DNA of 64,000 nt, filler included, from Stramenopiles sp. TOSAG23-3 (taxonomy: Eukaryota), in assembly GCA_900128585.1 (NCBI GenBank). It is 8 parts of 8 records of this genome, joined end to end, with 100 filler letters (N's around TTAATTAATTAA, not from the genome) between each part and the next. Parts side by side here need not be neighbours in the genome. Positions count along the whole stretch, not along the records: positions 48,326 to 56,255 come from LT643086.1; 7 more parts are not named here. One strand, written 5' to 3'. Below, piece after piece: positions 1,506 to 56,255 of this stretch. The notes below the pieces were generated by a model. The model had not been told where the DNA came from. It was given only the letters and a program-made list of their open reading frames with translations, and did no database searches. The translations under genes and the position numbers were made by a program. Every line of letters starts with the position of its first letter. Positions within the stretch are counted from its first letter, which is position 1.

Positions 1506-1952
1506 AAAGGTAAGTTAAAATTACGCTCTCCTTCAAAACATTTGAGCGTTGTCCCAGAAAAGCTTGGCAGGCAGAGAGATCTTCTTTGTGCCCATGTACC
1601 GGTTTGTGCATTAAGTATATAATATTATAATAAAATTTTATCACCTGGTAATAATTCTTCTCATTGGAATAAAAATAATTCCTCTGTGATGACTGACAAT
1701 CATCCACGACGAAACAAAACTAAAAATCAAGATAGGATTAGGGTTGGATTAGCAATGCTTGCAAATGAACCGTAATCAACTTCCGTAATTGATTTAAAAT
1801 GAGAGTCTTAAAACATACTATATAATTTTGTTTTTTTGATGTTTTATTAATGGTTTTGAAATAAAAATTAGGTTTTGTTAAATCAATACTCGTAGTGTCT
1901 TGGCCTTGGCTAAAAATAAAAATGTCGGCTTGAGAGTGGGTGTGGTGAAACT

Positions 1953-2684: not shown

Positions 2685-4008
2685 TTTGTTTTATATGTTT
2701 ATATGTTTTTTTATTTTTAATAACTGTTTTAGTGTAGTGATGAGATTTACTCTTTGCGTATGTATTGTGTGGTGGTGGACAACTTTGCTTTTGTCGCATA
2801 TTTTCTCAATAAACAATCTGTGTGGTATTTTATATATGTGTATGTGACTATAAACTATTATTTTATGAGAAGTGCATGCAAGGAGGAGCGATGACTGTGA
2901 TGATAGATTATTATTGATTGATGACGCCAACTGCTCTACTCCTTGTTGTGTATATGTATATGTATTACAATATGTGGATGATGATGGGTTAATAATTATG
3001 TAATAAAAATAAAAATACAATAATAATAATAAAAAAAAGAAAAAAAAAGAAGATTTTTACTATATTAACAACATTTTATTATTATAATAATTAATAATAA
3101 TATGTACGGTATTGATTCAATCATTTGATGAATTTGTTTTTGATGTTGTGTAGTGTTATTTAATTTTTTAATTGGCCTTCTTCTTCTTTTTTTTTTTTGA
3201 CAGTTTCATCAATTATTCACTAGACTAATAAAAAATGACGAAGAGAAGAAGAAAAAAGATACGAAGACAATATGGATGGATGGCACTATAATTAACGAAG
3301 GAGGTTGTTTGTTAAAATTAGAAACGACGTAAACACTATACAAGTCGTTCTATTTGAAATGACACTGTTCCTATAGTGTCTATTAGAACTAGTTTGCTCA
3401 TTATACTACTTTTAGTCTAGTCTGTCCTATTAAAATACAATTTAAAAACCGATTTATGACTTCCGAGCACTTTTTTATGACTTCAGGAAAGTAGGGTTTA
3501 TATTAGGTTATTTAGAACGCTGTGTATATGTTAAAATCCTACGTTTCTATATTTTTGCTCGATCAAAATCTCGTGTGTGGCCCCCATCATAATAAATAAC
3601 TAGAACGACTCTGATGTAGTATTAATTGGTTTTAATACGTACGTACGGTCTGGTCCACATATTAATACATGAAAACGTTCATAATTTACGAGGACAAATA
3701 AAAATAGACAACTTGGTAATTTTTTATTCTTTCTCTTCTTCTTCGCTCAGTCCCTCCCCTCCCCTCCTCCTTCCAACAACAAGATATTGCAGAGGAGCAC
3801 AGAAGAAAAAGAAGAAGAAGAAGAAAAAAGGAAGGATGATCGATAAGCTATAGACTACGGTAATAAATAGGAGAATATTTATTATATGTGGATACAATAT
3901 GAGACACGTGGTGGTGATGGTGATGGTGATTGTTCATACGAGGCGTTTATTATAAAATAAACTAAGTAGACTACGAGGACGTATACCTCGTATGGAAGCA
4001 CCTGACCA

Positions 4009-4102
4009 ATGAAGAAGAAGAAGAAGAAGAAGAAGGAAGAAGAAAGAAGAAGAAGAAGAAGAAGAAGAAGAAGAAGAAGAAGAAGAAGGGAAGAAGAAGA
4101 AG
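4009..4102 (+). repeat. (GAA)n microsatellite
   Basis: Long run of GAA triplets in intergenic DNA. Confidence 0.95.
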
Positions 4103-4321
4103 GACGACAACAATCTCTCTTCTTCTTCTATCTCTCCTTTATTTTTTTTTTTTTTTAGGCGATTTGATTTGTATGTATATAAAAAAATAGAAATACACAA
4201 ATGTTCTTTTCTATATATGATTATGTCTATCAATCCTACTGAAAAAAGGAAATTATTTCTTTGGGTGAGAAATTAGATTTTGACTGCGTAGAAAAGGAAA
4301 TTCTTCTATACTAAGCGCACC

Positions 4322-6088
4322 ATGGTGACCTTATTACGAACAAAAGCTCTGCTGGTTCTCGGCGTCGTCGCCGTCTGCTTCCTTGCCCTCGGGCCCAATG
4401 TTTTGGCTGACGCAAAGAAACGCGGGAGGAAGAAGAAGAAAGACCAGACGAATCATTTTTCTATGCAACTGAAAGTGCCAGAGTCGAAGATTGGGTTGAC
4501 CCTGGAAGACGCGAAGAAACTCTTGGAGTTCGGAAAGAAGGAAAAAATGGGTCAGCCGCTTCTCATATCTTTGCGTTCGGTGGTGCAAAAATTAGAAGGA
4601 AAGCACCGGACCCAAAAGAAGAAAGAGGCCAAGGCGGCCGAGGTGGAGAAGAACAGAAAACTAATCTACGGGGACAAAACTAGCGATGAGAGCGCCACGC
4701 CAGATGGCCACGAGCAAGATGAAGAGGCCGTCACTTTCTCCATTGGCGCAAGGCGGACGAAACCTTTGAAACGGTCCATGCAGGCGAAGAAGTGCAACTT
4801 TCCGACCTACACGGCCGAAGAGTTTGCCAACAAGTACCAGAACGGGGAGATCGACATTTACGCCCCGTTCAAAATTACCGACGCGGAGACTCAAGTGAAG
4901 AAATTGCGAGAAATTTGGACGATCTCAAAGCTCAGGACTAAGACGAATAGTACGATCAAGTACTTGTCGCCCATGATGGCAAAAATGATGCAAGAGGGGC
5001 AGCGTGATCCGACGCAAGGGCAAACCGTGGAAATGCTCCAACCGACGCTGGTCTCGCCCGCCGAGTACTTTGCCAATTGTTTCGGGGAGAAGAAAAAGAC
5101 GGGAACGGAGACCGAGTACTGCGAACAGACTGTCCCGGCGCTTCACTTTGGCGACGACAGCGCAATCAACGGTTTCAGCGTGGACGCTATTGCTGGCATT
5201 GCGCTGAAGCAAGTCATGGACGTCGCGACCAGATCCCTCATGAAAAAGATGCGAAATGCTGGGACAGGGTTCAAAAGCCTGGTGGAGACCGAGGACACGT
5301 TTATTAAAATGTTCAACGAAAAAGATTCCAGGCGAATTGTTCTAGGCCCGGCGGGGAGTGGGACCCAGATGAAGTATACGGGAGTCCCACTGTTCGACTC
5401 CCTCGTGCACGGTTCAAGGCGCTGGTTCGCCTTGTCTCCCAAGAAGCGATCCGAGCTTCTGAAAGCATCGGACGGCGGGTTTGGAACTGCGTTTAATTTT
5501 TTCGAGGACAAATACGCCGAGCTGCAGGACGATCACGACATGAAAGTGGACGCAAAAGACGGGATTTGGGAATGTTCCCAGGAGGCCGGTGAGTTTATTT
5601 ACATTCCCGTAGGAACTTATCGCACTTCCCTCAGTTTGCAAGATAGTATTTCGTACTCGCAGGAGTTGCTGATGCACAAATCGCACGTTACCAAGTACGT
5701 CGAGGCCACACTGTGGCAACCCCAGTCGCAGACGTGGACCGCGGGGGTATGTTTGACTGCCTCGCAGATGGAAAGGTTGCCAGGAATTGACGAGATTGGC
5801 ATTTCTCCGAACGGGCTCGTCGAAGCAATGCGAGAACAGCTCCATACCCCGAAGCAGCAAAACGGAATGCTGTTGCAGGCCGTTCTCATCTGCAAAGGGG
5901 TGCTGGAACTAGGCTTGCCAGCAGGCGAAACCTTGTGTGATTTCGTTTATCCAAGATGCGTCGACAAGCTGGCAAAGAACATCAAAAAATTGAAAATCAA
6001 AGACGAGTTGCCCTGGTTGAAGAAAGAGAAGAAACTTGCGAAGAAAATGAAAAAAAAGGAACGTGCAAACAGGAAAAGCGAATTGTAA
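4322..6088 (+). CDS. ER-luminal JmjC/cupin-fold protein (JMJD8-like), probably catalytically inactive
   Basis: N-terminal signal peptide; JmjC-like motifs LGPAGSGT, SLVHGSRRWF, CSQEAGEFIYIPVG; C-terminal KSEL. The expected Fe-binding His positions are replaced. Confidence 0.8.
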   Translation: MVTLLRTKALLVLGVVAVCFLALGPNVLADAKKRGRKKKKDQTNHFSMQLKVPESKIGLTLEDAKKLLEFGKKEKMGQPLLISLRSVVQKLEGKHRTQKKKEAKAAEVEKNRKLIYGDKTSDESATPDGHEQDEEAVTFSIGARRTKPLKRSMQAKKCNFPTYTAEEFANKYQNGEIDIYAPFKITDAETQVKKLREIWTISKLRTKTNSTIKYLSPMMAKMMQEGQRDPTQGQTVEMLQPTLVSPAEYFANCFGEKKKTGTETEYCEQTVPALHFGDDSAINGFSVDAIAGIALKQVMDVATRSLMKKMRNAGTGFKSLVETEDTFIKMFNEKDSRRIVLGPAGSGTQMKYTGVPLFDSLVHGSRRWFALSPKKRSELLKASDGGFGTAFNFFEDKYAELQDDHDMKVDAKDGIWECSQEAGEFIYIPVGTYRTSLSLQDSISYSQELLMHKSHVTKYVEATLWQPQSQTWTAGVCLTASQMERLPGIDEIGISPNGLVEAMREQLHTPKQQNGMLLQAVLICKGVLELGLPAGETLCDFVYPRCVDKLAKNIKKLKIKDELPWLKKEKKLAKKMKKKERANRKSEL

Positions 6089-6382
6089 GCGAAGGGAAGG
6101 GAAGCGAAGCGGAAAAGTAAGTTATGATAATTGTATTTTATAAAAATGAGATTGCTTTGATATACCCTTATTTAAATTGATACCCTCTTATACCAAGTAC
6201 CTCTAAATAATAAATAAAGAAGGAATTTTACAACACAAACACACAGCAGCATGTATTTTATATCTAAAATAAATAATAATACAGCAGTATTAATAATAAT
6301 AAATAAAAAATATTACTTTTATTATTTTTCTTCTTTTTTCTTTCTTTTCTTTCTTCTTCTTCGGTGGAATAAAATATAATAA

Positions 6383-6595
6383 TATTGTTGATTGCACGAT
6401 TAGTGCACAGGGGGGGGGGGGGTGTGTGTCGATAAAATTTCATTTTTTTACCATTTTTTAACCGATTGGTTTAATGCTGTATCTATATTATTAAGTGTAC
6501 NNNNNNNNNNNNNNNNNTAAACAAGTTGGTAAAAAAATGAAATTTTATCGACACACACACCCCCCCCCTGTGCACTAATCGTGCAATCAACAATA
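6383..6595. repeat. Inverted repeat (about 70-bp arms) flanking a small assembly gap; MITE-like
   Basis: 6383-6453 (TATTGTTGATTGCACGATTAGTGCACAGG..GATAAAATTTCATTTTTTTACCA) is the near-perfect reverse complement of 6527-6595. Confidence 0.85.
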
Positions 6596-6808
6596 ATAAA
6601 ATACACCACACCACCACCAAGTTGGTATTAATTAATACTAAAAAAACTAACAGCGTTATACTTTTTTTTGTACATGTTGTAAAATGTGATCGATCAAAGG
6701 TTAAGATGAAAAAAAGATCACTTTTATGAAGGACTTAAATTCAGTCTTTAAAAGCCACTAAAAACCAGATCAACGTGAAAGTATATACTTCATTTGACTG
6801 TGTACACA

Positions 6809-7555
6809 ATGAGGATTTTCCTTCTTGGTTTACTTTTGGTGTCGGTCGCCACAGCGTGCACGAAGGAGGAGTACCGCCAAAAGTTTGGGGCGATGCCGAC
6901 CTATGAACTCCACGGTACGAAACCGCACGATGCACCACGAATAGAGAATGGGGAAATTGTTGTTGGTGTAACGTACTCGTCCCACTGTCCTAACGGCGGC
7001 TCGAATTTTGTTGCGAATGCCATGGATAAAGAAAATGGTGTAAAAGTCTTTATTTTGGCCAGGGGTAACGCTTCGTGCCCTGGCAAAGAGCTCAGTTCCC
7101 CGCAGACGTTTACAGGGACTGTGTCTGCTGCGCTACCGAAGGGCTCCCTTGAGATCAACACGCAACGATTCATTGCGTTCCCGCCGGATGGAGATTTTGA
7201 GCTGTTTCTTTTGAAAGAAAAGATAAACACGTTCACAGTGAATGCTGCTGCATTTAGTAACAACGACCTTTCCGAGGTGAACATAGCGGATGAAGTAGTA
7301 GAGGCTTCCGAGGCCGTGGACAACGTTGCTGAGGCAGTGGAAGCAGAGACTGTGCCCGAGTTGCCTAAAACTGACAGCACTGCCCCAGAAGAAACCGTGC
7401 CAGAAGTAAAGGAACAAGTGGTAAAGCCTGCCGAACAAACTGAAAATGCAACGAAACCACCACATTCAACGTCTGGGAACATTTTTAGTCTTGTCTCCGC
7501 CGTGCTTCACTCCATGGACCCTTTCTTGATGGAAATTGTGAAAGTCCTGCAGTAA
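6809..7555 (+). CDS. Secreted/surface protein of unknown function with an acidic Ala/Glu/Pro-rich stalk
   Basis: First ATG at 6809 gives the signal peptide MRIFLLGLLLVSVATAC, followed by a Cys-containing globular domain and then a low-complexity EAV/PE tail. Confidence 0.75.
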   Translation: MRIFLLGLLLVSVATACTKEEYRQKFGAMPTYELHGTKPHDAPRIENGEIVVGVTYSSHCPNGGSNFVANAMDKENGVKVFILARGNASCPGKELSSPQTFTGTVSAALPKGSLEINTQRFIAFPPDGDFELFLLKEKINTFTVNAAAFSNNDLSEVNIADEVVEASEAVDNVAEAVEAETVPELPKTDSTAPEETVPEVKEQVVKPAEQTENATKPPHSTSGNIFSLVSAVLHSMDPFLMEIVKVLQ

Positions 7556-7977
7556 AATATTTGATTGCGTGGTTGTGATATATCAGTTACTATTGATCAT
7601 GTAACTGTGGGACAAGACAATCTTTTAACACCCGCTTTTATGTCCCCACTCCGTTGCTTCCTCTTCGTGTCCTTCCGCGTTTGTTATATGATATATATAT
7701 GATAATTTGTTTTTTTTAATATGATATTTGAAAGATAAGATAGTTTTATTAACTAAAAAACAAGAAAAATTGGCTGTTATTTTATAGTAATTAAAATTAA
7801 AGAACAAAGAAGGTGTCAAGGGTTCAAGAACAATATCTCCTCCTATTGCAGATCCTCCCCAAGTTCTGGTCAAGATTCCAATTGATTGGTCTTAGAATTA
7901 CACAGCGGCATAAATGTTTTAAAGGGGCTCGTTGTCTGTGGTACTGCTCAATGAAATAATGATCGGTATTGAGTTTG

Positions 7978-8077
7978 NNNNNNNNNNNNNNNNNNNNNNN
8001 NNNNNNNNNNNNNNNNNNNNNTTAATTAATTAANNNNNNNNNNNNNNNNNNNNNNNNNNNNNNNNNNNNNNNNNNNN
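7978..8077. other. Artificial contig-joining linker (44N-TTAATTAATTAA-44N)
   Basis: Six-frame stop spacer; identical copies at 16035, 24088, 32140, 40187, 48226 and 56256. Confidence 0.98.
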
Positions 8078-8264
8078 GAAGAAGAAGAAGGAGAAGAAGA
8101 ATTCATGCAGAGGAGATTATTAAAAGAATTAATGGATGATGTTTCCGTAGAAATTTGAAAATATAATTCATATGGGAAAAGCTGGGGTTTAAATTTCCAG
8201 AGCTATCAATTGATTTGCTGGATGAGATTGCTGTTTTTACATTGTGGTATTCCTGCATAGAAAA

Positions 8265-9398
8265 ATGTCTGTTCCTTCGTCCGACGTTCCGGAAACACAT
8301 AGCTGTGCGCACTACAGTCGCCACGGCCCGCCGTCGCTTGTCTCGGTGGATCCTATTCCGTCTCCCCCTTCCCCAGGATCAAAGCAGCTTCTTGTCAAAG
8401 TTTCCTTTGCCTCCTTGAATCCTGCAGATTACAAGTCGGCAGGGGGGGAGCAAGCGCTGCTGCTTAGTTTCAAGTGGCCCAGAGTCTATGGGTTTGATTT
8501 TAGTGGAGTCGTAGTGAGCGCAGCGTCCGACTGCAGCCTAGGATTTAAAGAAGGGGACGAAGTTTTTGGGATGATCGCGGGTTTGCCCCAGTTGCACCGT
8601 GGAACCCTGGCGGAGTATGTTCTGGTAGAAGAGTGGGTGTGTGCAAAGAAACCGGAGAATGTACCCCATAATGAAGCGGCCAGTGTTCCGCTGGTTGGGA
8701 TCACTGCTGTGAAAATGTTTCGTGCCTGCAACGCAGACGACCGTGCGAGCCCGCGGGTGCTCATTACTGGTGGCGCCGGTGGCGTCGGCACGGTCGCTAT
8801 CCAGCTGGCAAAATCGATGTATAAAGCGAGTTACGTCGCTACTACGGCATCTGCGGGGGTAAAGACAGAGTTGTGCAAGAGTCTAGGGGCCGACCGCGTC
8901 GTAAACTACAGGGAAGAAAAATTTTATGAGGTTTTGGATTCCGATGACGAAAGCGAGCTGTTCGACATTGTTCTGGATATCACCGGCGAAGCGAGTCGAG
9001 CGGTGCACTTGCTTAGAAAAAACGGTGGAATGTGTTCGATTGTGGTGGGGGCCACGTGCTCCGGGGTAAGAACATGGCTGGAAGAAGCCCGCATCAGCCC
9101 AAACGATATCACTACCGGTGTACGGCCGTTCTTGACAAGCGAATGGGGGGGTTCGCTGTTTAATTGTTTCGGCGGTGGCCGCTCGTTGATTCAAGCCTGC
9201 AAACGAAGGGATGCAAAGTATGCAATGGTCATAGGTACAGGAAATGGTGAAATCATGTTCATTCTTGCAAAGTTGCTGAAAGAGAAAAAAATTAAAGCCG
9301 TCATCGACAAGGAGTACCCACTTCAAGAGGCAAAGGATGCAATTGAATACTTGAAAAAGGGAAGAGCAGCTGGGAAGGTCGTCGTTCGTATCATTTAA
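8265..9398 (+). CDS. NADP-dependent medium-chain dehydrogenase/reductase (quinone oxidoreductase / RTN4IP1-like, Zn-independent)
   Basis: Motifs ASLNPADYK, GFDFSGVV, GTLAEY, VLITGGAGGVG (Rossmann fold) and C-terminal GRAAGKVVV. Confidence 0.93.
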   Translation: MSVPSSDVPETHSCAHYSRHGPPSLVSVDPIPSPPSPGSKQLLVKVSFASLNPADYKSAGGEQALLLSFKWPRVYGFDFSGVVVSAASDCSLGFKEGDEVFGMIAGLPQLHRGTLAEYVLVEEWVCAKKPENVPHNEAASVPLVGITAVKMFRACNADDRASPRVLITGGAGGVGTVAIQLAKSMYKASYVATTASAGVKTELCKSLGADRVVNYREEKFYEVLDSDDESELFDIVLDITGEASRAVHLLRKNGGMCSIVVGATCSGVRTWLEEARISPNDITTGVRPFLTSEWGGSLFNCFGGGRSLIQACKRRDAKYAMVIGTGNGEIMFILAKLLKEKKIKAVIDKEYPLQEAKDAIEYLKKGRAAGKVVVRII

Positions 9399-9899
9399 TA
9401 AATTTTATACTATTTTTTTTTTCGTGTTTTGTTTTCTTATCTGTTGTTTGTTTTGTTTTTACCCGTATTATCAATGACTGTTTGTTGTTGTTGTCATCGT
9501 CAGAAAGAGAAAAAAAAATAATTATTATTATAGGACGACTATTTTATTATAATACAAAAAAAACGAAATGGGTATGATGTTTCAGAAAAATTATCTGATA
9601 GATATTGATAGATAGATAGAAAACGTAATAAGAGCAAATGGTTTAAACAGTAGAGAAGTAGTAATCTGGTAGTAGTAGAACAATCTTCACCACTCTTTCT
9701 CTGCTGGATTTCTTCTGTTTTTTATTATTTTTTCTGCTGTTATATTTTTTGAAGCGAACGGTTTGTCTGTTGTATCTAGTAGAATTGGGTGGTTGGTGAG
9801 CGGGAAGCTTTATTGTGTCGTTGTTTGTTGTCTGGCTGGTCCATAGAGTAATAGTTTTGTTACCGTAGTGCGTGGATTTCTTCTTTTGTTTCTGGTAGG

Positions 9900-11156: not shown

Positions 11157-12902
11157 TCAAGCCTTTACGTACATGCCTTTCTGCAGCATCGTGTTGACAA
11201 ACTCCACATCGTTTCTAAGATCCCTGGCTAGTGCAATGCCCTCCCCGCTGCCGTCGGCGGGTCGATTGGGGATTGGTTGCCACCCTGCTTCGAGCTGTTT
11301 GTACGCCGTGTGCTTTGTCCGTTTGTAGTATTCGTTCCGCTTCGTTAACCGTTCCTTCAGCAGCCAGCCCACTATTTGCAGGGTACGCTGCAGCGGCCGG
11401 ATTCTGTCCCCATGATCTTTTAGGAACCGCAAGCATGCTGCTATCCCTCGATCTATAGTGCACCACATCTTTTCTAGCGCTTCAATATTAGGAAGCCAGT
11501 GCCCAGAATGGGACTGCGCATGAGTTGATCCTTGCAAGAAGAACATGCAAAGCCACTCAAACTCGATTTCCTCCCCGATGCTTCCAATTTCCCGCAACGC
11601 TTTCGGGTCCATCGCGTCCCGGGCTTCACGGGCAAGGGCGGGGTCCTGCCTCTCCGTCATTCTCCGCTCGCACTGTTCCAGCCTGGCCGCAATCTTCCGC
11701 GACATGTTGGCCGCGCGCTCGGCCCGAGTCCGGATGTAGTCCCATGTGTCTTTCACCACTACTGCTACGCGGTGAGTGCTCGAGTAGCGCCACGAGGAGC
11801 CCGCCAGAACTGCGTGCTGGTGGTGGTGGTTGAAATCATCGAGCATAAAGTAGCTGTCCTGCCTCTTCAGGGGGACGGCCACGGCAGGGGACGTGCTGTC
11901 GTTTGTCACGCGGGAAGCGATGACCCAGTCGTCGCGGGTCGACCCAGTCACATGATAAACCCCTATGGTGCTGAACTCCTGCAGACTGCTGTCGGCGTGC
12001 CACGAGACACTCATTTTTCCCATTCCAAACGCCGGTTCGTCGCGAAGGGGGAATTTTCGCCCATTGGGCTCCATGTAGTTTATCAACGCTACGTTGTAAT
12101 TGCAGCTTCCCATTTTTGCGTACTTCTTGGCGTGCCGGGTCAGCGCTTTGTTCATCTTCCTTATGGTGCCTATTGCCTTGGAAAGGGCGCTGTTGCCGCG
12201 CTGCTCCCACGGTATGGCAAAAATTCGAAGCTTTTGGTAGTGGTACGTCATCCCTGCATCTCCCAACAACGTCCGCTTGCACATTGTCCCGCTGACGGCA
12301 GCTTTACCTGCTGCGACAACGTCGTGGTGAAATATTACGCCACTCTCCCTCATACACTCTAATGACGCAAGGACTTCGCCATGCAAGTCGCCCGGCAGCG
12401 GCTGTGTCCCAGCATGGAGAAAACCTCGATAACTTTGCTTTACGCAGCCATCAAACTCAGGGTGGTTGGGGTAAAAGAATTTTGAGCCCTTGTCGTGCGG
12501 ATGGTAAGGTTTGGGTGGGCGCGTCTGCTTCAGGGTTGCAGCCCGGCCACGTGGACCTTCCTCGACCGACTTTCCCGCCTTTGAGCCCACTCGGTCCTTC
12601 TGCTTCTTCCTCTTCTTGGACTTTTGTAATACTTGCGACGGCAAAACATTGGGGACCCTCGTCCCTTCCGTCTGGCTGCCCTCCCCGGCGGGGACGACGT
12701 TGCTCTCCCTTTTCTTCTTCTTTTTCTTCTTCTTTTTCTTCTTGCTCTTCGAGGCCAAAGACTCCTGGTCGTTAGAAGCGGTCGCACTCGATGGTTCCGA
12801 ACTATTGCACCTGTGCTTCTTTTTTAACTTTCCCTTCAGGGCTTCCCAGTTGCTAGATCCACCCCCGCCCCCGGGAGCTCGCTTTCGCTTCGGCTTCCCC
12901 AT
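11157..12902 (-). CDS. FTO: FTO-family 2-oxoglutarate/Fe(II) nucleic-acid demethylase
   Basis: MGKMSVSWHAD (HxD), YFMLDDFNHHHQHAVLAG, RYSSTHRV and the C-terminal domain motif EIEFEWL..F..QG all match FTO; first ATG at 12902. Confidence 0.95.
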   Translation of the reverse strand: MGKPKRKRAPGGGGGSSNWEALKGKLKKKHRCNSSEPSSATASNDQESLASKSKKKKKKKKKKKRESNVVPAGEGSQTEGTRVPNVLPSQVLQKSKKRKKQKDRVGSKAGKSVEEGPRGRAATLKQTRPPKPYHPHDKGSKFFYPNHPEFDGCVKQSYRGFLHAGTQPLPGDLHGEVLASLECMRESGVIFHHDVVAAGKAAVSGTMCKRTLLGDAGMTYHYQKLRIFAIPWEQRGNSALSKAIGTIRKMNKALTRHAKKYAKMGSCNYNVALINYMEPNGRKFPLRDEPAFGMGKMSVSWHADSSLQEFSTIGVYHVTGSTRDDWVIASRVTNDSTSPAVAVPLKRQDSYFMLDDFNHHHQHAVLAGSSWRYSSTHRVAVVVKDTWDYIRTRAERAANMSRKIAARLEQCERRMTERQDPALAREARDAMDPKALREIGSIGEEIEFEWLCMFFLQGSTHAQSHSGHWLPNIEALEKMWCTIDRGIAACLRFLKDHGDRIRPLQRTLQIVGWLLKERLTKRNEYYKRTKHTAYKQLEAGWQPIPNRPADGSGEGIALARDLRNDVEFVNTMLQKGMYVKA

Positions 12903-14297
12903 AGAGGACACGAGCCGCGTCAGCTCGTTCGCAACGGTGAACGCGTCCGCTGCTTCGCCGGCGCTCCCGGGCGCGTTCAGTCTAAAATCAGGTTTCGTCC
13001 AAGTTTCCCGCTTTCCGCGGCACAGGTGCGCTTATTGAGTAAAAGTAAACTAGGAACCTACCCTGTAAAAAAAGGATGTAAATCTTTTACGCATGATATT
13101 TATTGCTCTTTTCGTTCAGAGGTGGACCATTATCTTGCAAAGACCGTTCTGCTGGCCCTCTCCTCTCTTTTTTTAATCATTACCCTTCCTTCCAAAGCAT
13201 CGGAACGGAGGAGGAATCGTTTTTTTGGGGAACATTTAATATATATATAGGTAAAAAAAATAAGTACAATTATTGGGATATTTATCCTATCCGCTGTTTT
13301 TGTGATTCGGCCTTTTTTGACATTCGACCCTTAAATAAAATAATGCTCTCCCTCTCTACACACGAATAATGGGTTTTTCCCATTAAAGGGTCTTTTTTTT
13401 GAAATAATCCCACTAAAGGGGGGTCTTTTTCCAAATTGTTGTAATTCTTTAAGAAAAATTATGTACTTACCGTTCTATTATAGAAAGTAATGGGATTAAA
13501 GCCATTGACGACGACGATGCCGACAATTTTATCCTGTCAGGAGAGACGGCAGCACCGATCGAAACCAAACTGACCAGAGCAAGTTTTCAAGAATTGGAAG
13601 AGGCCAACGCCGACAGCGACTACATATCGTATTTTAGAGTTCGCTGACATCCCGCTTCGCGAACGAAAATTGGTAGTTCTCGCAATGGCCATGATACCGA
13701 ACCAGCCCACAATGGTGCAGTACGACTTCAACAGTCTAAAGGCACAGGGCAAGAAGCATGCAGCCGAATCTTGCCGTAAAGCAAACAGGATGACTGGGCA
13801 ACACCTTGTGGGTAGGCAGAGGCACGAGGACAGATACCCGCAAGACGCATGGCCGGAGGGGGCGGGTAATCATCCGTCAAGTAGCCGACCCATGAGCAAC
13901 AGACCCCCATGGGACAATTGGCAGGGGGGACAGAACAGCAGAATGGAGGATATGTGGAACGGGAGAGAAAATGGGGTTAGGAATATAGACCAATGGAGGT
14001 ACGAGGGTAGCGGGCGGGGCGTCCCCGGAAACATGTTCGGTAAGTATGGCCCCACTCCCTCCCCTTCTCTTAACGCGAGTCCAGGCAGGATATGGTATAG
14101 AATCCTAGCAAAATGCAAATCGTACCAAGGCCAGTTGATTGTTAGAGTCGGTTTGGTTTGCTTTGGCTAGATCGTTTTGGTTTACTCTGCTGGGGTCAGT
14201 CGTTTCTGTAACTCATCATCGTATACCTTTTTCCCCTTGTCATCTGATATTTTATTATTATTATTTTACCAACAATATTTATTATTATTAGGAGTGA

Positions 14298-48325: not shown

Positions 48326-48326
48326 G

Positions 48327-51300
48327 CTACGATGGGGCAAACCAGAACCGTGGCAAATGACCAGTCTACGGTTGGCACAAGAGAAAATCCTGTTGGCGCA
48401 TCGTCCCGGTTTTGGTAAGACCATTAATGCGTTGTTACTGGCCGAGAAAATGCGTAGACTATCGGGGAGAAAAGTTCTGCTGTTGGCCCCCAATAGAGAC
48501 TTGTTGTCGCAATGGGTAATTGAGTTGCATAAGTTGGGATTTGACAAACGTGATTACATTTGGTCTACGTACAACCATTTTCGGGATTCGCAAACCAAAT
48601 GGCTCTATCCAGAGTACAAGGATTTAAACGATTTTGAGAAGACGTACAAAGATTGGATTAAGAAAACAAAAGGAACGAAGGTTGGAGAATATCCGAAACA
48701 TAATCTTGACACTCCAATTAGAAATTTCCCGAAAGATACAGATAAAGATGTGAGTAACAAAATACGCCATTGTATGGTATGTGGAAGAGAAATAAAATAT
48801 TCTGAATTCGGTGCCGATGGAAAAGAGGACTTAGGTAAAGTGCTAAAGGGTATCGTCCACGAATTTGACCTTGGTAACAATACTATCCGAGTGGACCACC
48901 ATTGGCATCTTGTTGAAGACAAACTGTTTCTTGCGTGTGGTTGCAATGACATAGATGCACAGTTTTTGTGTGGGTTCAGTTTAAAGAAAGAGTCTACAAT
49001 ATCAGAATATCGGAAAATAGGGTATATGAAATGGAAAGCCTTCTACTTCAAGTTGAAACGGATCGCACAAGAGAAAGGTAAAGAGACAAAAGATAAAACA
49101 GTAAGCGAATTAAAGAAAGCCATTTGGGAAGGTGGAGTAACGCACGAGTACACGGTCCCCTATTATACGGACAGGAAAGGGAATTTTTACCATATGTATC
49201 GAGCACCGAAAGACTGTATCATTGTTTGCGACGAAATCCATAAATTTGTTCGTGATTCTAAGTCACTGATGTCCCAAGCGCTGTGGAAATACATTGCACA
49301 AAGCAAATATACCATTCTGTTGTCGGCCACTCCCATTGAATCGTCAAACGAAACAAAACAATTGTTTATCTTATCGGAGCTGTTAAAAGATAATTCGATG
49401 TACCCGTACAAGTCAGTGACTATCGATGGAAGCTTCAACGGTCTATCGCTTCCACCATGGCATCCATTGTATCCAAAGGAAAACGACGAAGATATGTATG
49501 ACTTGGCAGCACGTATTCGCGGTAAATTTTCTCGACACAACACGGTTCAAGATATTGACGCCGCAATAAAGATTATTTTTGACAAAAAAGGCGATGAAGA
49601 CGATCGTTTCAAAATGAACTACAAAAAATTGTTGAATTTTTATATGGGTACAAAGGACGAGTTTTTGTCAACAATTCAAAAGAAGGGCTTGGCTAAATTT
49701 CTAAAAGACGCATTGAAAAATTTATTCGTGGTTCAAAATAAGAATGAGTTGAGGATTTTTCCAGATCTCATTCCGTACAATAATGGGTACATAAACGTGA
49801 CTTGTGATCTGAATCGTGCGATAATGAAAGAAAGAACCCCACAATATGAAATACGGTATCAAATCATAAAAGATAGCCAGAAACGATTCCGTCTTGAAAA
49901 AAAGGAACATACCATCACAGTCATTAAGGCAAACAATGGTCTGTATAGTGGAAACGAAATCATCAAACTAGAGCAATGGATTCTACAAAGAAAAGATGGT
50001 TTAATTAACATTCGTTTAAAACCGGACGAAGGCACAGTACCATTGGAGTCTGCTATTGTGACAAACTACACCGTATCCACGAACACCGAATATAAGGTTA
50101 TTGAGGATTCAATGCAAGGAATGATAGCCGGCGTAACACCAAAACCAAATATACAATGGCTCCATGTGTGTCCCACCGTTGAGGTTACGGCTACATCTCG
50201 AGATCGCTTAGAAAAATGGTACGATAATATACCATACATTCCAGACTTATTGGGTTCAAAAGTATTGGAAATGGTGTATACCATTGAAGAACAAGTAAGC
50301 AAATCCAAGAATGTGATGGTGTATCACGACAAGGTTGAGATGTTACGGATGCTACAACGTGCACTTACGATGCGGAAGCACAAATACGTGAACCAACATA
50401 TATGGGACGATTCGCAGATGAAAAATCATGCGAAGGAACAAGCTAGCAAACGGTATCGTAAGCTGGTATGGCAAAACGATGAAGATATCGATTACGTCCA
50501 GATACAAGAGGACGCATACGAGTATGGTACATCTGTGTCCACTGAATTAGATTACGAAGAACTCGAAGACGTGTATAAATTTTACAACAACATTCTTCCA
50601 CAAGTCTGTTACCCCATCTTTTTCAAAACGATGGAATCGGAGTTAAAAAAAAATGGAATCGAATTAAGTGAAGCTGTCAATACGTTTGCATACTATACTG
50701 AGTATGCTTGGGGGAAGAGTAACAAAGATACGATTGCTAAAGACAAAGAAGAATGCGATAAATACATACAAGCAGCAAAAACAATAGAAAGGATGCATAC
50801 GGGTAAAATTAACAAGGCGCGAAAGCAAGAAATCATCAAAAGTGCAAAGACATTTAAGACCTTTGACACGACGAAGGAATTTAAAAGAATAATTGCAACA
50901 GCGTGTGAGAACGCCTTCTCCGAATTAAGGAAGACTTCCAAGAACAAAACGCTTCAACAACAACTAGAAGACCTAAATTTGCAAATACCAGTGTTTTCTG
51001 AAGTAAATGGATTGACAAAAGCCCAAGAAATGATGGCTGATTATTACAAAGTAAGCCGTATGTCTATGTCGGCAGGCGGGACAGGAACCTTTCATAGTAC
51101 ACTAAAAAAAACAAGAGGCAAGACAAACTTTCTCCAAACTTATTTTTATCAATCCCCAAAAAACCCACCCTTGTTAAGGGTAGACAGACGGTTTGATATG
51201 CCATTTGATGATTTTAACTCCATTAAGTCGTTTATAAATGAAAAGCACAAGGCATTTTTTGTCAAGGTGCAGAATACGAAAAAACGTGAAACGAAAATGA

Positions 51301-53951
51301 CCATTCTCAACTATGAATATGAGTTGAAAGAAGACGATGATTTTAAAGATGCTAGTGACTGCAAGCAAGCATTTATCAACTGCTTCTATACACAGCAATA
51401 CATAAACAGCATGTTTGACGAGGAGACGAAAACGTTGTTGTTCAAGGATGGAGAGACCGGTCAAACCATAGAAAACATAGATGATCTGTTAACCGTATTG
51501 GAACACATCAAGAAAAATCCATATTCAAAGCAAAAGAAGGGGAAAGCTGTAGTACATTTGAACAGTAAAAAATTATTGCGAGACGATAAAACGTTTCCAC
51601 GGACAGACTACGTAGAAGCAGTGTACCCTAGACTGAGTGGGATGAGCGAGAAAAACCGTATGTACTTTGCGTTGATTGGTGGTAGAGTCAACTACGACAA
51701 TGCAAAAATTAAAGGATGGTTTGAAAACGGGTCCATCGATTGTTTATTGGTCTCGGACAAAGGTATTGAAGGCATAGACTACAAATCGTGTTCATCCTCC
51801 TTTATGATCTGCATTGACCCCGTGAAATCCGCGGGCAAACAAGACCAGTTCAATGGACGTACCGTACGACGAAACTCCCATAAAAACCTCCCAAACAGCA
51901 TGCGAATCGTAGAATACGTTTCATTTGTCGGAACAGGAGTTTCCAAACATCAAAAGGGTGCAAAAGAAGACGAATTGAAAGAGGCAAAGCAATACAAAGA
52001 ATTGATCAAAGCCATAAGAAATCCTACAGGGTTAACTTCAGAACAAGTCATACAGTATAAAATACGTGTAAACCAACTCGAGCGTCGAGATATAGCTGAA
52101 AAACAATTGAAGAAACTCGATAAAGAGGAAAACGATTGGCTCGTTGCCAATAGAGACGCTGTAGAAAAGACAATTTATACGAAGAAGGTCACCATCGTTG
52201 ACGAAGAGGGAGAAGAAGAAATGGAGGTACGAGGTTACGTTGACAATGCAGTGACTTTGTTTAATGACTTAAACATCGACTACAATGCATACAAAACAAT
52301 ACGTATTGATCAGCAGAAGATGATGGTAGTCGATGAGTCACTTGTTCAGTTTATACCCGATTCTAAATACCAAGTAGATGAACAGGCTGACGGGATAACG
52401 TTTGATACGATAGAAAACAACACCATCAAATTGTGGATTTTACCGAACAGCATGGAAGTCATGAGCGACGATGAGAAACAAGCGATGTTGTACAGACAAA
52501 AAAACAAATACAACAAATTGACTGATAAGGCGTCGAAGGAAGCGCTCTTAACATACAAATACTCCGTCGAAGACTTTACAAAAGATCCGGGAATCAATGA
52601 ATTGGAACGCCAGTTGGGATTTCCACAGTCGGGTTATAGAGAGACATTCAATCTCAATATAAAAAGACGAAGAAAAGTGCAGGATGAGGAGATACCGGAC
52701 GCCAAGAAATGGTCTACCTATTTCGACAACTACGTCAATATTTCGCATGTGCCGGTATACAACAACTATGCATTTACATCCTTAGGCGACGTGAATACCG
52801 AAGGTAAACACTATTTTTGTTACGCATGCGACCAAGATAGAAATATGGAGAACGGTAAATGTAAATTTTGTAATTTACCACTGAAGGAAGGGGATAAATA
52901 CCTGTACTACCATTTGGTGCAACCCGATGGATTTAAGCAAGCGACGAAAGAGTTACTCAAGACAACAAGTAATATGAAGAAACAAAAACTCTCCATTGCT
53001 AACCGCATTCAAAGGGACCGACTGGAGATGATGATGTCCTTGAATTCCATTGAACATCGGATGCAGTTGAATGGGGACCGACGATACAAATTAGAATACA
53101 CAGAGAAAGGCGAAAAACGTACCTACTATCACCGAGTCAACGATCCGCCAACTACGGTGTCTCCATCGCTTCTAGAAAATGATTGGGATAAGCTGATCGC
53201 GGATCCGGAACTGATCGATGATCGCGGATCAGAACCCCTAACCAAAGAGATTGATACGAAGCCGACCTATGTCTCTTTGGCAAGAGGGCAAAACACTCAA
53301 AACGTTAGTGAGGATATCACATCAATAGAAGAGAAGATCAATGAAGCAAAAAATCGATTGGAACTAGGAATGGACATCATGTGGTTTGATGACGTCGGTA
53401 GTGAATCAAATTTAACAAAAAAATGGCGGCGTGAAAAGATAATTGAGGAATGCGAAGTCCTAGAAGATAAAGTGATTAGGAAACGTAAGAATGGTGCTGA
53501 AATAGAAAAACTGGAAGTTGTCGAGTACTTGGACGATTGGAAAGAGTATGACAGGGGTACTTACTGGTTGATTACCACATCTTCAATTCCCAAAACGCAG
53601 AGTCAAATTATAAAAACGTTATGGCCAAAGCCAACGAATGCTCTAACACCAACCAACGTCAAAGAATTTAAACGAATAACGAGTGACTTTTGGTTCAACG
53701 GAACCGATACACTGAAAGTGCGCAATGAAAGCTACGACATTGAAATGGATTGGGTTTGGATGAATAAAGACGAGCGAATGGATATGAAGAGGCGGATAGG
53801 ACCGAGGGGTGTAGATATTGAAGGATTGTACAAGGAGTTAGAAGATACGAAGAAAGCAGAAATAAAAGCCGGTCTCACGGATCCGGATTACGAGGAGGTA
53901 GAGAACAGACCGGACGATCGGTACGGGGTAGAGATACAAGAAGAATATTAA
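48327..53951 (+). CDS. Giant SF2 helicase, poxvirus D6/D11 (VETF-s/NPH-I)-like, 5'-truncated, >1870 aa
   Basis: The frame is open to the contig start (PEPWQ Q-motif). Motif I LAHRPGFGKT, Ia LLAP....QW, II CDEIH, III LLSATP, IV NVMVY, V SDKGIEGIDY, VI QFNGRTVRRNSH. Confidence 0.85.
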   Translation, partial: LRWGKPEPWQMTSLRLAQEKILLAHRPGFGKTINALLLAEKMRRLSGRKVLLLAPNRDLLSQWVIELHKLGFDKRDYIWSTYNHFRDSQTKWLYPEYKDLNDFEKTYKDWIKKTKGTKVGEYPKHNLDTPIRNFPKDTDKDVSNKIRHCMVCGREIKYSEFGADGKEDLGKVLKGIVHEFDLGNNTIRVDHHWHLVEDKLFLACGCNDIDAQFLCGFSLKKESTISEYRKIGYMKWKAFYFKLKRIAQEKGKETKDKTVSELKKAIWEGGVTHEYTVPYYTDRKGNFYHMYRAPKDCIIVCDEIHKFVRDSKSLMSQALWKYIAQSKYTILLSATPIESSNETKQLFILSELLKDNSMYPYKSVTIDGSFNGLSLPPWHPLYPKENDEDMYDLAARIRGKFSRHNTVQDIDAAIKIIFDKKGDEDDRFKMNYKKLLNFYMGTKDEFLSTIQKKGLAKFLKDALKNLFVVQNKNELRIFPDLIPYNNGYINVTCDLNRAIMKERTPQYEIRYQIIKDSQKRFRLEKKEHTITVIKANNGLYSGNEIIKLEQWILQRKDGLINIRLKPDEGTVPLESAIVTNYTVSTNTEYKVIEDSMQGMIAGVTPKPNIQWLHVCPTVEVTATSRDRLEKWYDNIPYIPDLLGSKVLEMVYTIEEQVSKSKNVMVYHDKVEMLRMLQRALTMRKHKYVNQHIWDDSQMKNHAKEQASKRYRKLVWQNDEDIDYVQIQEDAYEYGTSVSTELDYEELEDVYKFYNNILPQVCYPIFFKTMESELKKNGIELSEAVNTFAYYTEYAWGKSNKDTIAKDKEECDKYIQAAKTIERMHTGKINKARKQEIIKSAKTFKTFDTTKEFKRIIATACENAFSELRKTSKNKTLQQQLEDLNLQIPVFSEVNGLTKAQEMMADYYKVSRMSMSAGGTGTFHSTLKKTRGKTNFLQTYFYQSPKNPPLLRVDRRFDMPFDDFNSIKSFINEKHKAFFVKVQNTKKRETKMTILNYEYELKEDDDFKDASDCKQAFINCFYTQQYINSMFDEETKTLLFKDGETGQTIENIDDLLTVLEHIKKNPYSKQKKGKAVVHLNSKKLLRDDKTFPRTDYVEAVYPRLSGMSEKNRMYFALIGGRVNYDNAKIKGWFENGSIDCLLVSDKGIEGIDYKSCSSSFMICIDPVKSAGKQDQFNGRTVRRNSHKNLPNSMRIVEYVSFVGTGVSKHQKGAKEDELKEAKQYKELIKAIRNPTGLTSEQVIQYKIRVNQLERRDIAEKQLKKLDKEENDWLVANRDAVEKTIYTKKVTIVDEEGEEEMEVRGYVDNAVTLFNDLNIDYNAYKTIRIDQQKMMVVDESLVQFIPDSKYQVDEQADGITFDTIENNTIKLWILPNSMEVMSDDEKQAMLYRQKNKYNKLTDKASKEALLTYKYSVEDFTKDPGINELERQLGFPQSGYRETFNLNIKRRRKVQDEEIPDAKKWSTYFDNYVNISHVPVYNNYAFTSLGDVNTEGKHYFCYACDQDRNMENGKCKFCNLPLKEGDKYLYYHLVQPDGFKQATKELLKTTSNMKKQKLSIANRIQRDRLEMMMSLNSIEHRMQLNGDRRYKLEYTEKGEKRTYYHRVNDPPTTVSPSLLENDWDKLIADPELIDDRGSEPLTKEIDTKPTYVSLARGQNTQNVSEDITSIEEKINEAKNRLELGMDIMWFDDVGSESNLTKKWRREKIIEECEVLEDKVIRKRKNGAEIEKLEVVEYLDDWKEYDRGTYWLITTSSIPKTQSQIIKTLWPKPTNALTPTNVKEFKRITSDFWFNGTDTLKVRNESYDIEMDWVWMNKDERMDMKRRIGPRGVDIEGLYKELEDTKKAEIKAGLTDPDYEEVENRPDDRYGVEIQEEY

Positions 53952-54301
53952 GCTATAGTTCTACATAAGGGGCAAGTATTATTTACACGAAACCAACGCT
54001 CTATACAATGTTGGTGAAAGGTATGGTTACAGAGTAAGGTTTGTTTAATATTGAAGTCCTCTTCGTGGCATATGGAGCAGAATTCCATATTCTGTATGCT
54101 GTGCGCTTCAATGGTCAACACCTTTCTGTTCTGTAGTTCAAGTATGTACAATGCTTTTGGTATAGTGAAACTGGGGTACCTTGAATTGATTCGATCTTGG
54201 ACGATGCTTTTGTACGCATGGTAGCTGTAATCATCCAGCCATTGTTGAAGCTCCTGTTTTACATCGTCGGTCTGTATATTGACCGGTATCCATATTTCCA
54301 T
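53948..54301 (-). CDS. Small RING-H2 finger protein (putative E3 ubiquitin ligase)
   Basis: CSICHEEDF...LLCNHTFHQHCIERWF..NNTCPLCR. Confidence 0.92.
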   Translation of the reverse strand: MEIWIPVNIQTDDVKQELQQWLDDYSYHAYKSIVQDRINSRYPSFTIPKALYILELQNRKVLTIEAHSIQNMEFCSICHEEDFNIKQTLLCNHTFHQHCIERWFRVNNTCPLCRTIA

Positions 54302-54327
54302 TTAATATACCATAATGAATATTTATA

Positions 54328-54741
54328 CTATTTTTTCATATCCATTTTAAAATTTTGGTATTTGCGCACCAAGAAATCCTCTTCTACATGGTACACCCAA
54401 CTGTTCAAAAACGGTCGTTCCAGCCAGACCACATCCACATACACTTTGTCCATTTGCTCGTTGCATTCGTCCCATTCTTTCGCTGCTTCTTCCGAACAAA
54501 AAGTAATGACCAAATATTTTACATCGTCGCCTTCCACGATGGCCTTTGCCACTCTCGAATACCCATAGTACATGTACAGGGATTTGTCGTCTTTGTACTT
54601 CTTACTGAGTGCATAAGCATACACTTCGTGTTTGAACCTGCTCATTGGGTTTCCCTCCTTCAGTTCTTCGCGTAAAACGTACGTATCGTCTTCCAATAGT
54701 CTGGAATATATGTAAAAGTCAGAGGATAAATAATTTCCCAT
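54328..54741 (-). CDS. ORFan, 137 aa, N-myristoylation motif (MGNYLS)
   Basis: Tightly packed ORF preceded by TAAATG and a -26 TATTTAA; MGxxxS start. Confidence 0.75.
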   Translation of the reverse strand: MGNYLSSDFYIYSRLLEDDTYVLREELKEGNPMSRFKHEVYAYALSKKYKDDKSLYMYYGYSRVAKAIVEGDDVKYLVITFCSEEAAKEWDECNEQMDKVYVDVVWLERPFLNSWVYHVEEDFLVRKYQNFKMDMKK

Positions 54742-55455
54742 TTATATCATTTCATTTGACTTAAATACCTTCTTCGCCGTGTTGCATCTTGTCTTTGCAT
54801 CTTTAATGTTTAAAGGCAATGGGTAATCCTCTGGCACGACTTTTGGTATGTACCATTCCTCCGTCTCGTTTTCTACACTGTAGTACACCATTGCGTTGAA
54901 TATAATACATGAACCAATCATGGATACAATCGAGGATGTATTCATACTACTTACGGACCACTCTAGTAGAGCAAACACATAATTGTATGCCATTCGATAG
55001 AGAAAATATTCTTTTATTTTCGTCTTGCTCTCCCACACCAGAATAGGTTCCTTCATTTTGTGATAGATAGCGAGGCACACCATTGCTAATAAAAATTGCA
55101 GGTATCCGGCAGTAGAGCAAAAGCACAATACGCATGTCAGATGAATGGATTCCGAAGTACAACGATTCCATTTGACCATTTTAAAATTGAGACACAACAA
55201 TAAAATCCATATGCCCCCAGCGTACTCGTTGCGATAGGCCATTGTAATCCATAATACCAAACGTTGTACGTGTAGCCATCGGTTGAGGTCAATCATGTTC
55301 ATTTCTAGGATAGGATAATGGTGAATGACTAGAGCATGGGTAACAATATGACCTAATAAGATAGTATACATGGAACCATGAAGAAGGTAATGAAGACAGA
55401 GAATACACCATGGTAATAAACTAATAGGGAAAAGAGACTGTAGTCTGAGATTCAT
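54742..55455 (-). CDS. ORFan multi-pass membrane protein, 237 aa
   Basis: Several hydrophobic segments; its stop TAA abuts the next ATG; shared promoter motif upstream. Confidence 0.7.
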   Translation of the reverse strand: MNLRLQSLFPISLLPWCILCLHYLLHGSMYTILLGHIVTHALVIHHYPILEMNMIDLNRWLHVQRLVLWITMAYRNEYAGGIWILLLCLNFKMVKWNRCTSESIHLTCVLCFCSTAGYLQFLLAMVCLAIYHKMKEPILVWESKTKIKEYFLYRMAYNYVFALLEWSVSSMNTSSIVSMIGSCIIFNAMVYYSVENETEEWYIPKVVPEDYPLPLNIKDAKTRCNTAKKVFKSNEMI

Positions 55456-55493
55456 TTAAACAATATGTATCTGTATTTATATAGATATAAGCA

Positions 55494-56093
55494 TTAATCA
55501 CAAATAACGGTGTGTGGTCCTGAAGGAAAGGCTGCAAACAATTCTTTCAAACTTTGTTTGTTTGGATTCAATTCAGAGACCAGCATTTTTTTCCCATCGA
55601 ACATGCGAATCTCGGCACTTTGGTCTCCATCCGCGTACGCGCGCAAACTCTTTATGTAACGCTCTTTGCCTTTCATAAGCTGCATGTCATTTCCTTGAAA
55701 TCCTACCAAATGTTTTAGGGTGGTTGCGTCCTTAATATTTTTCTCCTTTGCTTTGTTACCAACACACGAGTTCGTATGGGACTTACCGCAATCGTCACAG
55801 GCCTGTTCGTACTCATTTTCTACTTCTTCCTCTTCCAACAAATCGTCCATGTTCACATCCATGGGTTCCACATTAATCAATTTTCTCACCTTTCTCGGTT
55901 CCGGCGCCAACGAAAAGGACTGGACCAAAACATCGTTAGGACCAATTTCTATACGAGCCTTTTTAATGGATTCTTCTAGGGCGGAATTGGGAGCAATATC
56001 GGTTTGAAATTTTGCGTTGAACTCGGAAATGGTCATAAATTTCATTCCCGGGGCTCTTAGGTAGGTTACGTAACGATTCACTTCGTTGATCAT
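55494..56093 (-). CDS. ORFan, 199 aa, with CxxC...H..C motif; N-terminus weakly resembles the TFIIE-beta winged helix
   Basis: ATG ORF with shared promoter motif; CDDCGKSHTNSC; the similarity to TFIIE-beta is by eye only. Confidence 0.7.
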   Translation of the reverse strand: MINEVNRYVTYLRAPGMKFMTISEFNAKFQTDIAPNSALEESIKKARIEIGPNDVLVQSFSLAPEPRKVRKLINVEPMDVNMDDLLEEEEVENEYEQACDDCGKSHTNSCVGNKAKEKNIKDATTLKHLVGFQGNDMQLMKGKERYIKSLRAYADGDQSAEIRMFDGKKMLVSELNPNKQSLKELFAAFPSGPHTVICD

Positions 56094-56139
56094 TTATTGA
56101 GTCATTCTACCGTATATATACGCAAAAAGATTTATTTAA
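56094..56139. promoter_or_regulatory. 46-nt bidirectional promoter with central palindromic CGTATATATACG and TAAATG starts on both strands
   Basis: TATATATA at 56113-56120 lies 27 nt from the ATG on each strand (56093 and 56140). Confidence 0.75.
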
Positions 56140-56255
56140 ATGAGATCCGAGCGTATTCGTAGAGAACAATTTTCAGCCATAACCATGTTAGACGGTGACG
56201 ACACTGACCCATGCGAAGAAGCTTTGGAACCTTTAGAAGCATTGGAATTTACTCC
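56140..56255 (+). CDS. Partial ORF (MRSERIRREQFSAITMLDGDD...), truncated by contig end
   Basis: TAAATG start 27 nt after the TATA box; frame open to the linker. Confidence 0.55.

Follow-up and report, generated by a model that had tools for sequence, protein, structure and literature searches.

The genome assembly of Stramenopiles sp. TOSAG23-3 (GCA_900128585.1) contains a gene-dense contig, LT643086.1, which raises the question of which virus it derives from, how its genes are expressed and how its DNA came to lie in a protist assembly. It was analysed within a window of 64,000 nucleotides (nt), where it occupies positions 48326-56255; all positions given here count along this whole stretch. 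An earlier note on this DNA had read the contig as part of a large eukaryote-infecting double-stranded DNA virus, and this reading stands: it is the only contig of the window that matched virus references (tblastx, 1e-5), the other contigs giving no match. The note had left the lineage between nucleocytoplasmic large DNA viruses (NCLDVs) and mirusviruses. The mirusvirus part of that proposal fits and the NCLDV part does not, as the relatives of the contig carry a terminase and neither A32 nor an NCLDV capsid. The contig is very probably a genome fragment of a marine mirusvirus (Mirusviricota, which combine herpesvirus/phage-type packaging with giant-virus-like replication and transcription genes).

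The evidence for this placement comes from larger virus contigs with the same gene order. An IMG/VR scan with a single helicase sequence of the contig gave no match, and an alignment-based profile was needed to find relatives. The profile scan led to four loci on contigs of 56-179 kb (records including G001-G004), and in all four the order helicase, RING, 137-amino acid (aa), 237-aa and 199-aa gene is kept. Identities are 29-37% for the helicase, 62-69% for the RING protein, 82-85% for the 137-aa protein, 43-49% for the 237-aa protein and 48-56% for the 199-aa protein. Because they are syntenic and conserved in all four loci, the small genes are conserved virus genes and not the ORFans that they had been taken for. 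Terminase_6N scores over the Pfam cut-off in three of the four syntenic records. When a profile of these three terminases was compared with the PDB, all five matches were to T4 gp17 and phage large terminases, at weak E-values (0.0065-0.18). Snf7 is found in two of the four records and the TATA-binding protein (TBP) in one. Pox_A32 is found in none of the four, which are fragments (the control search was positive in one genome), and Capsid_NCLDV in none of the four, in a search that found none in control genomes either.

The most informative record is G003 (179 kb, with direct terminal repeats), for which 122 of 144 open reading frames (ORFs) were scanned, plus 18 large ORFs of which 10 overlap the 122. 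It encodes the RNA polymerase subunit Rpb2 (8.5e-125), a PolB with an intein (DNA_pol_B 2.1e-100), thymidylate synthase, thymidine kinase, DHFR and dUTPase, as well as heliorhodopsin, trypsin-like and M16 peptidases, a PI-kinase with FYVE domain, Arf/Ras GTPases and six RING proteins. In closer relatives, known from metagenome contigs that are 95-99.9% identical to the stretch, the genes that follow encode heliorhodopsin, Ras-like and Arf proteins and thymidylate synthase. Trypsin-like and M16 peptidases, TBP, heliorhodopsin, RING fingers, Snf2 ATPases and Snf7 are described as core or enriched functions of mirusviruses relative to Nucleocytoviricota, and nucleocytoviruses are reported to lack Snf7 (PMC10132985; PMC12768974). 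As the syntenic records carry terminase, RNA polymerase, PolB, TBP, Snf7 and heliorhodopsin and no A32, the contig is placed in Mirusviricota.

The contig shares with the Mirusviricota of these reports the gene repertoire of its relatives, the marine plankton habitat and the presence in metatranscriptomes (PMC10132985; PMC12768974). The contig itself differs in being without virion hallmark genes. The start of a heliorhodopsin gene lies on it. A comparable case is that of the AurliV-1 episome and AurliV-2 integrant of Aurantiochytrium, also mirusvirus contigs in a eukaryote assembly, for which a superfamily 2 (SF2) helicase and a RING E3 are annotated as on the contig studied here (PMC12606086). 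In contrast to the AurliV elements, the element described here is known from 7.9 kb (18,979 bases in a Logan contig) and its virus is near-identical in open-ocean metagenomes.

Several features of the relatives were observed alongside the shared gene block. The terminases of L019-L021 (G001-G003) are 85-94% identical to each other, whereas the helicases are 29-37% identical to that of the window; this contrast reflects either very uneven evolutionary rates or module exchange. G004 (56 kb) is classed as a provirus by IMG/VR and over 25 kb has the same matches as L001 of the 134-kb G001. The intein of the G003 PolB (L014:109-4284) matches Intein_splicing (1.2e-8) and LAGLIDADG_3 (6.8e-6). A 4,070-aa ORF of the same record (L015:30-12239) has only EGF-like matches (Teneurin-type EGF 2.3e-8) and may encode a giant surface or adhesion protein.

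Contigs of about 7.9 kb make up the window, and the one under study (7,930 bases) is a separate record bounded on both sides by N44-TTAATTAATTAA-N44 spacers. The earlier note had correctly seen it as separate. It had also called it entire, and in this it was wrong as to the molecule: the probable source run (X1) yielded a Logan contig of 18,979 bases (depth 22) that holds the whole stretch, identical, at its positions 1548-9477, so that LT643086.1 is a cut piece. Both of its ends lie inside viral genes, with no host junction visible there. The note's description of the layout was accurate. Six ORFs tile the contig with successive gaps of -4, 26, 0, 38 and 46 nt, giving a coding share of about 98.6% (about 7,819 of 7,930 bases, by arithmetic from the ORF coordinates). 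The tetranucleotide TTAA at 53948-53951 supplies the convergent stop codons of both the helicase gene (+) and the RING gene (-), and the stop codon of the 237-aa gene (54742-54744) directly adjoins the ATG of the 137-aa gene (54741). The contig also lacks the microsatellites of its neighbours, as had been noticed: one of the 30 tandem-repeat rows of the window falls within it, a marginal one, and the GAA, TCT and AAG microsatellites are in other contigs. The features of the contig are listed in the table.

Table. Features of the mirusvirus-like contig, with positions along the window
Feature	Position	Strand	Description
Whole contig	48326-56255		very probable mirusvirus genome fragment; five-gene block syntenic with IMG/VR virus contigs
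Helicase/ATPase, 5'-truncated	48327-53951	+	Snf2-like SF2; 1,874 codons present; ends ...IQEEY
Walker A GFGKT	48408-48422	+	invariant columns G28-T32; coordinates by arithmetic
Motif II DEIH	49230-49241	+	D302, E303, H305 invariant
Motif VI QFNGRTVRRNSH (QxxGRxxRxxSH)	51846-51881	+	Q1174, G1177, R1178, R1181, S1184, H1185 invariant
117-aa RING-H2 protein	53948-54301	-	RING finger at about 53960-54079
TATAAA	54322-54327	-	26 nt before ATG of RING gene
137-aa protein	54328-54741	-	start MGNYLSS; strongly conserved
237-aa multi-pass membrane protein	54742-55455	-	hydrophobic 19-mers
TATTTAA	54761-54767	-	26 nt before ATG of 137-aa gene, inside coding end of 237-aa gene; kept in all four sequences compared
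TATAAA	55476-55481	-	26 nt before ATG of 237-aa gene; kept in place in L001, L002, G003
199-aa Cys/His protein	55494-56093	-	conserved family
TAAATG	56091-56096	-	start of 199-aa gene
Palindromic TATATATA	56113-56120		putative shared two-way TATA box, 27 nt from both divergent starts (56093, 56140); positions by count
Heliorhodopsin-domain protein, first 38 codons	56140-56255	+	3'-open, cut by contig end

The largest gene of the contig encodes a helicase whose frame is open from the first bases, so its 5' end is absent. The start at ATG 48357 given by the earlier note is thus not the true one: full-length relatives have 2,092-2,420 aa, with about 520-560 more N-terminal residues than the contig copy, and a metagenome contig 87% identical to the stretch carries the helicase gene in full (2,379 aa), preceded by a TATAAA that lies 26 nt upstream of its ATG. 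Among 7,330 candidates, 35 helicase homologues were found, the best three being 59-60% identical over the full length and all from marine metagenome sources. The protein has the conserved domains DEAD (E-value: 1.4e-9) and ResIII (2.3e-7) over the Pfam cut-offs in lobe 1, and a Helicase_C match (0.0019) below the cut-off at residues 1057-1172. Because this match starts only at residue 1057, the two lobes lie about 700 residues apart. Walker A, DEIH, SATP and motif VI are all invariant in the aligned relatives; motif VI had been pointed out before, and it is indeed present. Two further clusters of invariant cysteines (C149...C204/C206 and C1498/C1501/C1512/C1515) are probably zinc ribbons.

The same note had typed this helicase as D6/D11-like. 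A profile search against PDB sequences at 0.01 gave no match, and the three phmmer matches in the PDB (E-values 0.03-0.6) are all unrelated proteins. A model of residues 1-1200 (predicted local distance difference test (pLDDT) 71.4; predicted template modelling score (pTM) 0.62) had no PDB fold match at an E-value of 0.001 or below. The best fold matches, weak ones with E-values above 0.001 and template modelling (TM) scores of at most 0.33, are SRCAP, INO80, ZorD, ALC1, CHD4, SMARCAD1, Rad5, SWR1, RapA and CSB; vaccinia chains are absent from the top 50, the PDB being a collection that includes vaccinia D6 (VETF-s) and D11 (NPH-I). The D6/D11 label is unsupported, since there is neither a PDB sequence match nor a vaccinia chain in the top 50 folds. 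SNF2-rel_dom is the precomputed annotation on the helicase relatives, and the protein is best described as a Snf2-like DNA translocase with a split motor. It has two RecA-like lobes in common with SRCAP, INO80 and SWR1, which are Snf2 proteins with a long interlobe insertion. The family differs from these by its extra zinc ribbons, a region of about 550 residues at the N-terminus and a conserved C-terminus, and the accessory domains of the remodellers were not detected.

The conserved C-terminus has the form hydrophobic-x-x-Glu-Tyr, which lies within three residues of the end in 33 of the 35 relatives (here IQEEY, 53937-53951); the two relatives without it look like truncated gene calls. This end has the look of a docking tail and is similar to the EEY ends known from alpha-tubulin and EB1. 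The roughly 200 residues before it are not conserved. Three helicase relatives of 2,750-2,900 aa (P0024, P0026 and P0034) have an OTU deubiquitinase domain (PF02338) near the C-terminus, followed by a ...SEY or ...EEY end. A 58-base stretch at the 3' end of the helicase gene (53895-53954) gives way to 17 other letters in X4, a marine metagenome, and in X16, a metatranscriptome; this strain-variable spot coincides with the helicase/RING stop overlap.

Four complete genes and the start of another make up the rest of the contig. The 117-aa protein has a C-terminal RING-H2 finger (Pfam zf-RING_2 8.6e-12, zf-rbx1 5e-11) and is a probable E3 ubiquitin ligase. The 137-aa protein belongs to a family of which 80 clusters were found, nearly all of 135-141 aa, with long invariant motifs and with Gly2 kept in 90% or more of the 39 sequences aligned. 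Its first residues follow the pattern Met-Gly-x-x-x-Ser/Thr and are a predicted N-myristoylation-type start. The model of this protein has a confident alpha/beta fold (pLDDT 78.6), for which no match was found in PDB and BFVD at an E-value of 0.001 or below; the best was Top7-like, with a TM of about 0.3. The Atlas gave leads only, to unnamed phage clusters. A homologue 55% identical (P0148) comes from the eukaryote proteome collection EukProt, which suggests that a related virus, or a related insert, is present in a further protist data set.

The 237-aa protein contains several hydrophobic 19-mers, as expected of a multi-pass membrane protein. It has no Pfam match, and the Atlas gave a weak lead to DMT/EamA transporters (0.87). 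The 199-aa protein family has 12 clusters, in the alignment of which C99, C102, H194 and C198 are invariant, and ends in ...FPSGPHxVxCD. The sixth ORF encodes the beginning of a heliorhodopsin-domain protein of 362 aa, as judged from its counterparts: its 38 residues are identical to the start of a 362-aa ORF on L025 (DNA 99.86% identical over 712 shared bases), which is itself identical at 341 of 362 residues to an ORF of L022 that matches Pfam Heliorhodopsin (3.1e-31). An analogy with herpesvirus UL9/UL10/UL11, which encode a helicase, a multi-pass membrane protein and a myristoylated tegument protein, was considered and dropped, as homology was supported by nothing tested.

The genes of the contig share a distinctive start. 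TAAATG occurs at every one of the five gene starts that are visible. Upstream of each ATG, at 26-27 nt, is a TATA-type box that is in the same place in relatives; the TATA-N-TAAATG motif proposed in the earlier note is real. TATWWA was counted at -32 to -19 relative to the ATG. It precedes 106 of the 144 genes of G003 (74%), 17 of 21 in L001, 16 of 19 in L002, 11 of 14 in L022 and 8 of 8 in L023, against 2.0-3.2% of control ATGs. TAAATG itself is found at 46 of 144 G003 starts versus 2.6-3.1% of control ATGs, and its T is often absent in relatives. The usual distance from a TATA box to the transcription start is 25-31 nt. With the box 26-27 nt upstream, transcription would begin at the start codon itself. 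No paper was found on mirusvirus promoters, TATA boxes, TAAATG or leaders, and the word 'promoter' is absent from the main text of PMC10132985, PMC12768974, PMC12606086 and PMC10827195. A virophage promoter has been matched to a mirusvirus (PMC11502894).

An RNA contig bears on what happens at such a start. In metatranscriptome run X15, a contig of 529 letters (record 9, k-mer depth 29.4) matches 55590-56095 and then continues into 23 T's (+ strand). Read along the sense strand of the 199-aa gene, AAATG is immediately preceded by 23 untemplated A's at a place where the genome reads T. Given this orientation, neither internal oligo(dT) priming nor a 3' tail can account for the A's, which would then lie 3' of the sense sequence. 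Late mRNAs of poxviruses carry a 5' poly(A) leader, an untemplated A-tract at the TAAAT initiator, and the X15 contig, a single observation, suggests a leader of this kind. The tract was seen in one contig only, the second RNA run (X16) stopping 12 nt short of that end. Among 16 sequences of the 199-aa family, none begins with the Lys run expected from an A-led, 5'-open ORF; gene callers may start at ATG. A search of IMG/VR, a DNA collection, for 13 A's followed by the degenerate 137-aa gene start returned no stretches, and a 32-base anchor scan of metagenome contigs gave four loci, none with an A-tract, which look like DNA.

Every gene is laid out alike, with a TATA-type box of its own 26-27 nt upstream of the ATG in a TAAATG start. 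In the model proposed here for transcription in this lineage, virus-encoded TBP and RNA polymerase would initiate at the start codon or immediately beside it. The position of the box would place initiation on the AAA of TAAATG. The polymerase may then slip on the template T's, as the one contig suggests, and add an untemplated 5' poly(A) leader. An otherwise leaderless mRNA would in this way gain a short leader made of A's alone, and its translation might then depend little on the cap-binding machinery. That mirusviruses of this lineage make messages like poxvirus late mRNAs, by TATA-set initiation on TAAATG, slippage and a 5' poly(A) leader, is a possibility put forward tentatively. Intermediate and late promoters of poxviruses have the same TAAATG initiator overlapping the start codon, and the RNA contig has the A-tract before AAATG. 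The arrangement described here differs from that of poxviruses in its canonical TATA box at a fixed -26/-27, in a lineage that encodes TBP and Pol II-like subunits.

A rival reading places the contig in Nucleocytoviricota, where its helicase would be a transcription helicase of the D6/D11 type and its promoters would be of the poxvirus late type. TAAATG at five of five starts, motif VI of the helicase and the one RNA contig with its 5' A-tract all agree with this, and RING, myristoylation-motif and heliorhodopsin genes occur in NCLDVs too. It is nevertheless very improbable, given that three of the four relatives have a terminase, that Snf7 or TBP is present among them and A32 and NCLDV capsid in none, and that the helicase is without a PDB sequence match and has Snf2 remodellers, with no vaccinia chain in the top 50, as its best folds. 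Some points also weigh against the mirusvirus placement. The contig itself holds no capsid, portal or terminase gene, and the lineage call rests on synteny with larger records. These records are only 22-50% complete by CheckV, which makes gene absences in them soft, and the negative result for Capsid_NCLDV is weak because no control genome gave a match. Among the hallmark genes that the earlier note had proposed to look for, PolB, RNA polymerase and TBP were found in the syntenic relatives. Mirusviruses are defined by an HK97-fold major capsid protein, alongside a herpesvirus-like triplex, portal and protease, none of which lies on the contig. This capsid protein was not demonstrated, relatives included; a 1,455-aa candidate of G003 (no Pfam match) has no PDB sequence match. 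A mirusvirus nonetheless remains the very probable source of the contig.

The virus was also found outside the assembly. Of the 24 runs listed, 20 contain part of the stretch when judged by sampled 31-mers. They come from 13 studies, the probable source among them; at least half of the words are present in eleven runs, and six runs are metatranscriptomes. Near-identical virus DNA is confirmed in X4 (marine metagenome; 15 pieces, 7 at least 99% alike), X15 (RNA; 12 pieces, 6 at least 99% alike) and X16 (RNA; 14 pieces, 9 at least 99% alike), next to the one identical piece in X1. The k-mer shares suggest nine further studies and a virus widespread in the sea. A 137-aa protein that is 100% identical and helicases 59-60% identical are already in public metagenome data. 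The near-identical sequence in X4, X15 and X16 and the k-mer matches elsewhere show that this is not the unsampled lineage supposed before. The 237-aa gene (54951-55480) is almost without cover in both RNA runs, which is no measure of expression.

Virus DNA would be in the assembly because it was in or on the sampled cell(s), whether through active infection, as episomal or integrated DNA, or in a particle sampled along with them. Integrated and episomal mirusviruses have been reported in protist assemblies (PMC10827195; PMC12606086), the relative G004 is labelled a provirus by IMG/VR, and the 137-aa homologue P0148 was found among eukaryote proteomes. An endogenous mirusvirus integrated in a host chromosome, like AurliV-2 in Aurantiochytrium, and not free or episomal DNA, is all the same unlikely: both contig ends are inside viral genes with no junction visible, all ORFs are intact and compact, and near-identical copies are present in two marine RNA runs of two studies, with k-mers suggesting two more RNA studies. 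The copies in RNA runs fit a circulating, active virus at least as well, and neither side is decisive. The virus DNA may instead have nothing to do with the sequenced organism and come from a particle or a fragment of infected prey taken up from seawater with it. The contigs of the probable source runs total 16 and 11 million letters, which is very small, and by k-mer share the same virus is in seawater metagenomes of eight studies, X4 among them confirmed. Nothing direct speaks against such co-sampling, which is a real, if doubtful, possibility.

The other contigs of the window have a different character. Seven of nine long ORFs tested in them match Pfam families at 1e-5 (among them kinesin, filamin/PH, ABC transporter, FTO, an inositol-phosphatase-type domain with C2, cupin and PhyH), and the neighbouring contigs are eukaryotic on the strength of these matches. 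One of them encodes a full FTO-type dioxygenase at 11157-13031 (-) (FTO_NTD 5.1e-74, FTO_CTD 7.9e-25). The FTO family has a patchy distribution outside animals. An Rfam search of the window gave no match, and a PHROGs search nothing useful.

The contig is a new member of the mirusviruses, of which near-identical sequence is already public. In a report that includes a mirusvirus screen of 1,901 eukaryote assemblies, mirusvirus hosts are described as still mostly unknown (PMC10827195), and the contig adds a candidate link, weak as yet, between a widespread marine mirusvirus and a particular eukaryote. Its added value lies in a conserved gene block without known function and in a testable hint of 5' poly(A) leaders. 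As the block is conserved across divergent mirusviruses, the helicase, 137-aa, 237-aa and 199-aa genes are good targets for functional work. The A-tract contig of X15 is the most valuable lead, since the making and translation of near-leaderless viral mRNAs can be tested in public metatranscriptome reads. If the model is true, a herpesvirus-related phylum would share a transcription trick that has so far been tied to poxviruses and a few cytoplasmic elements.

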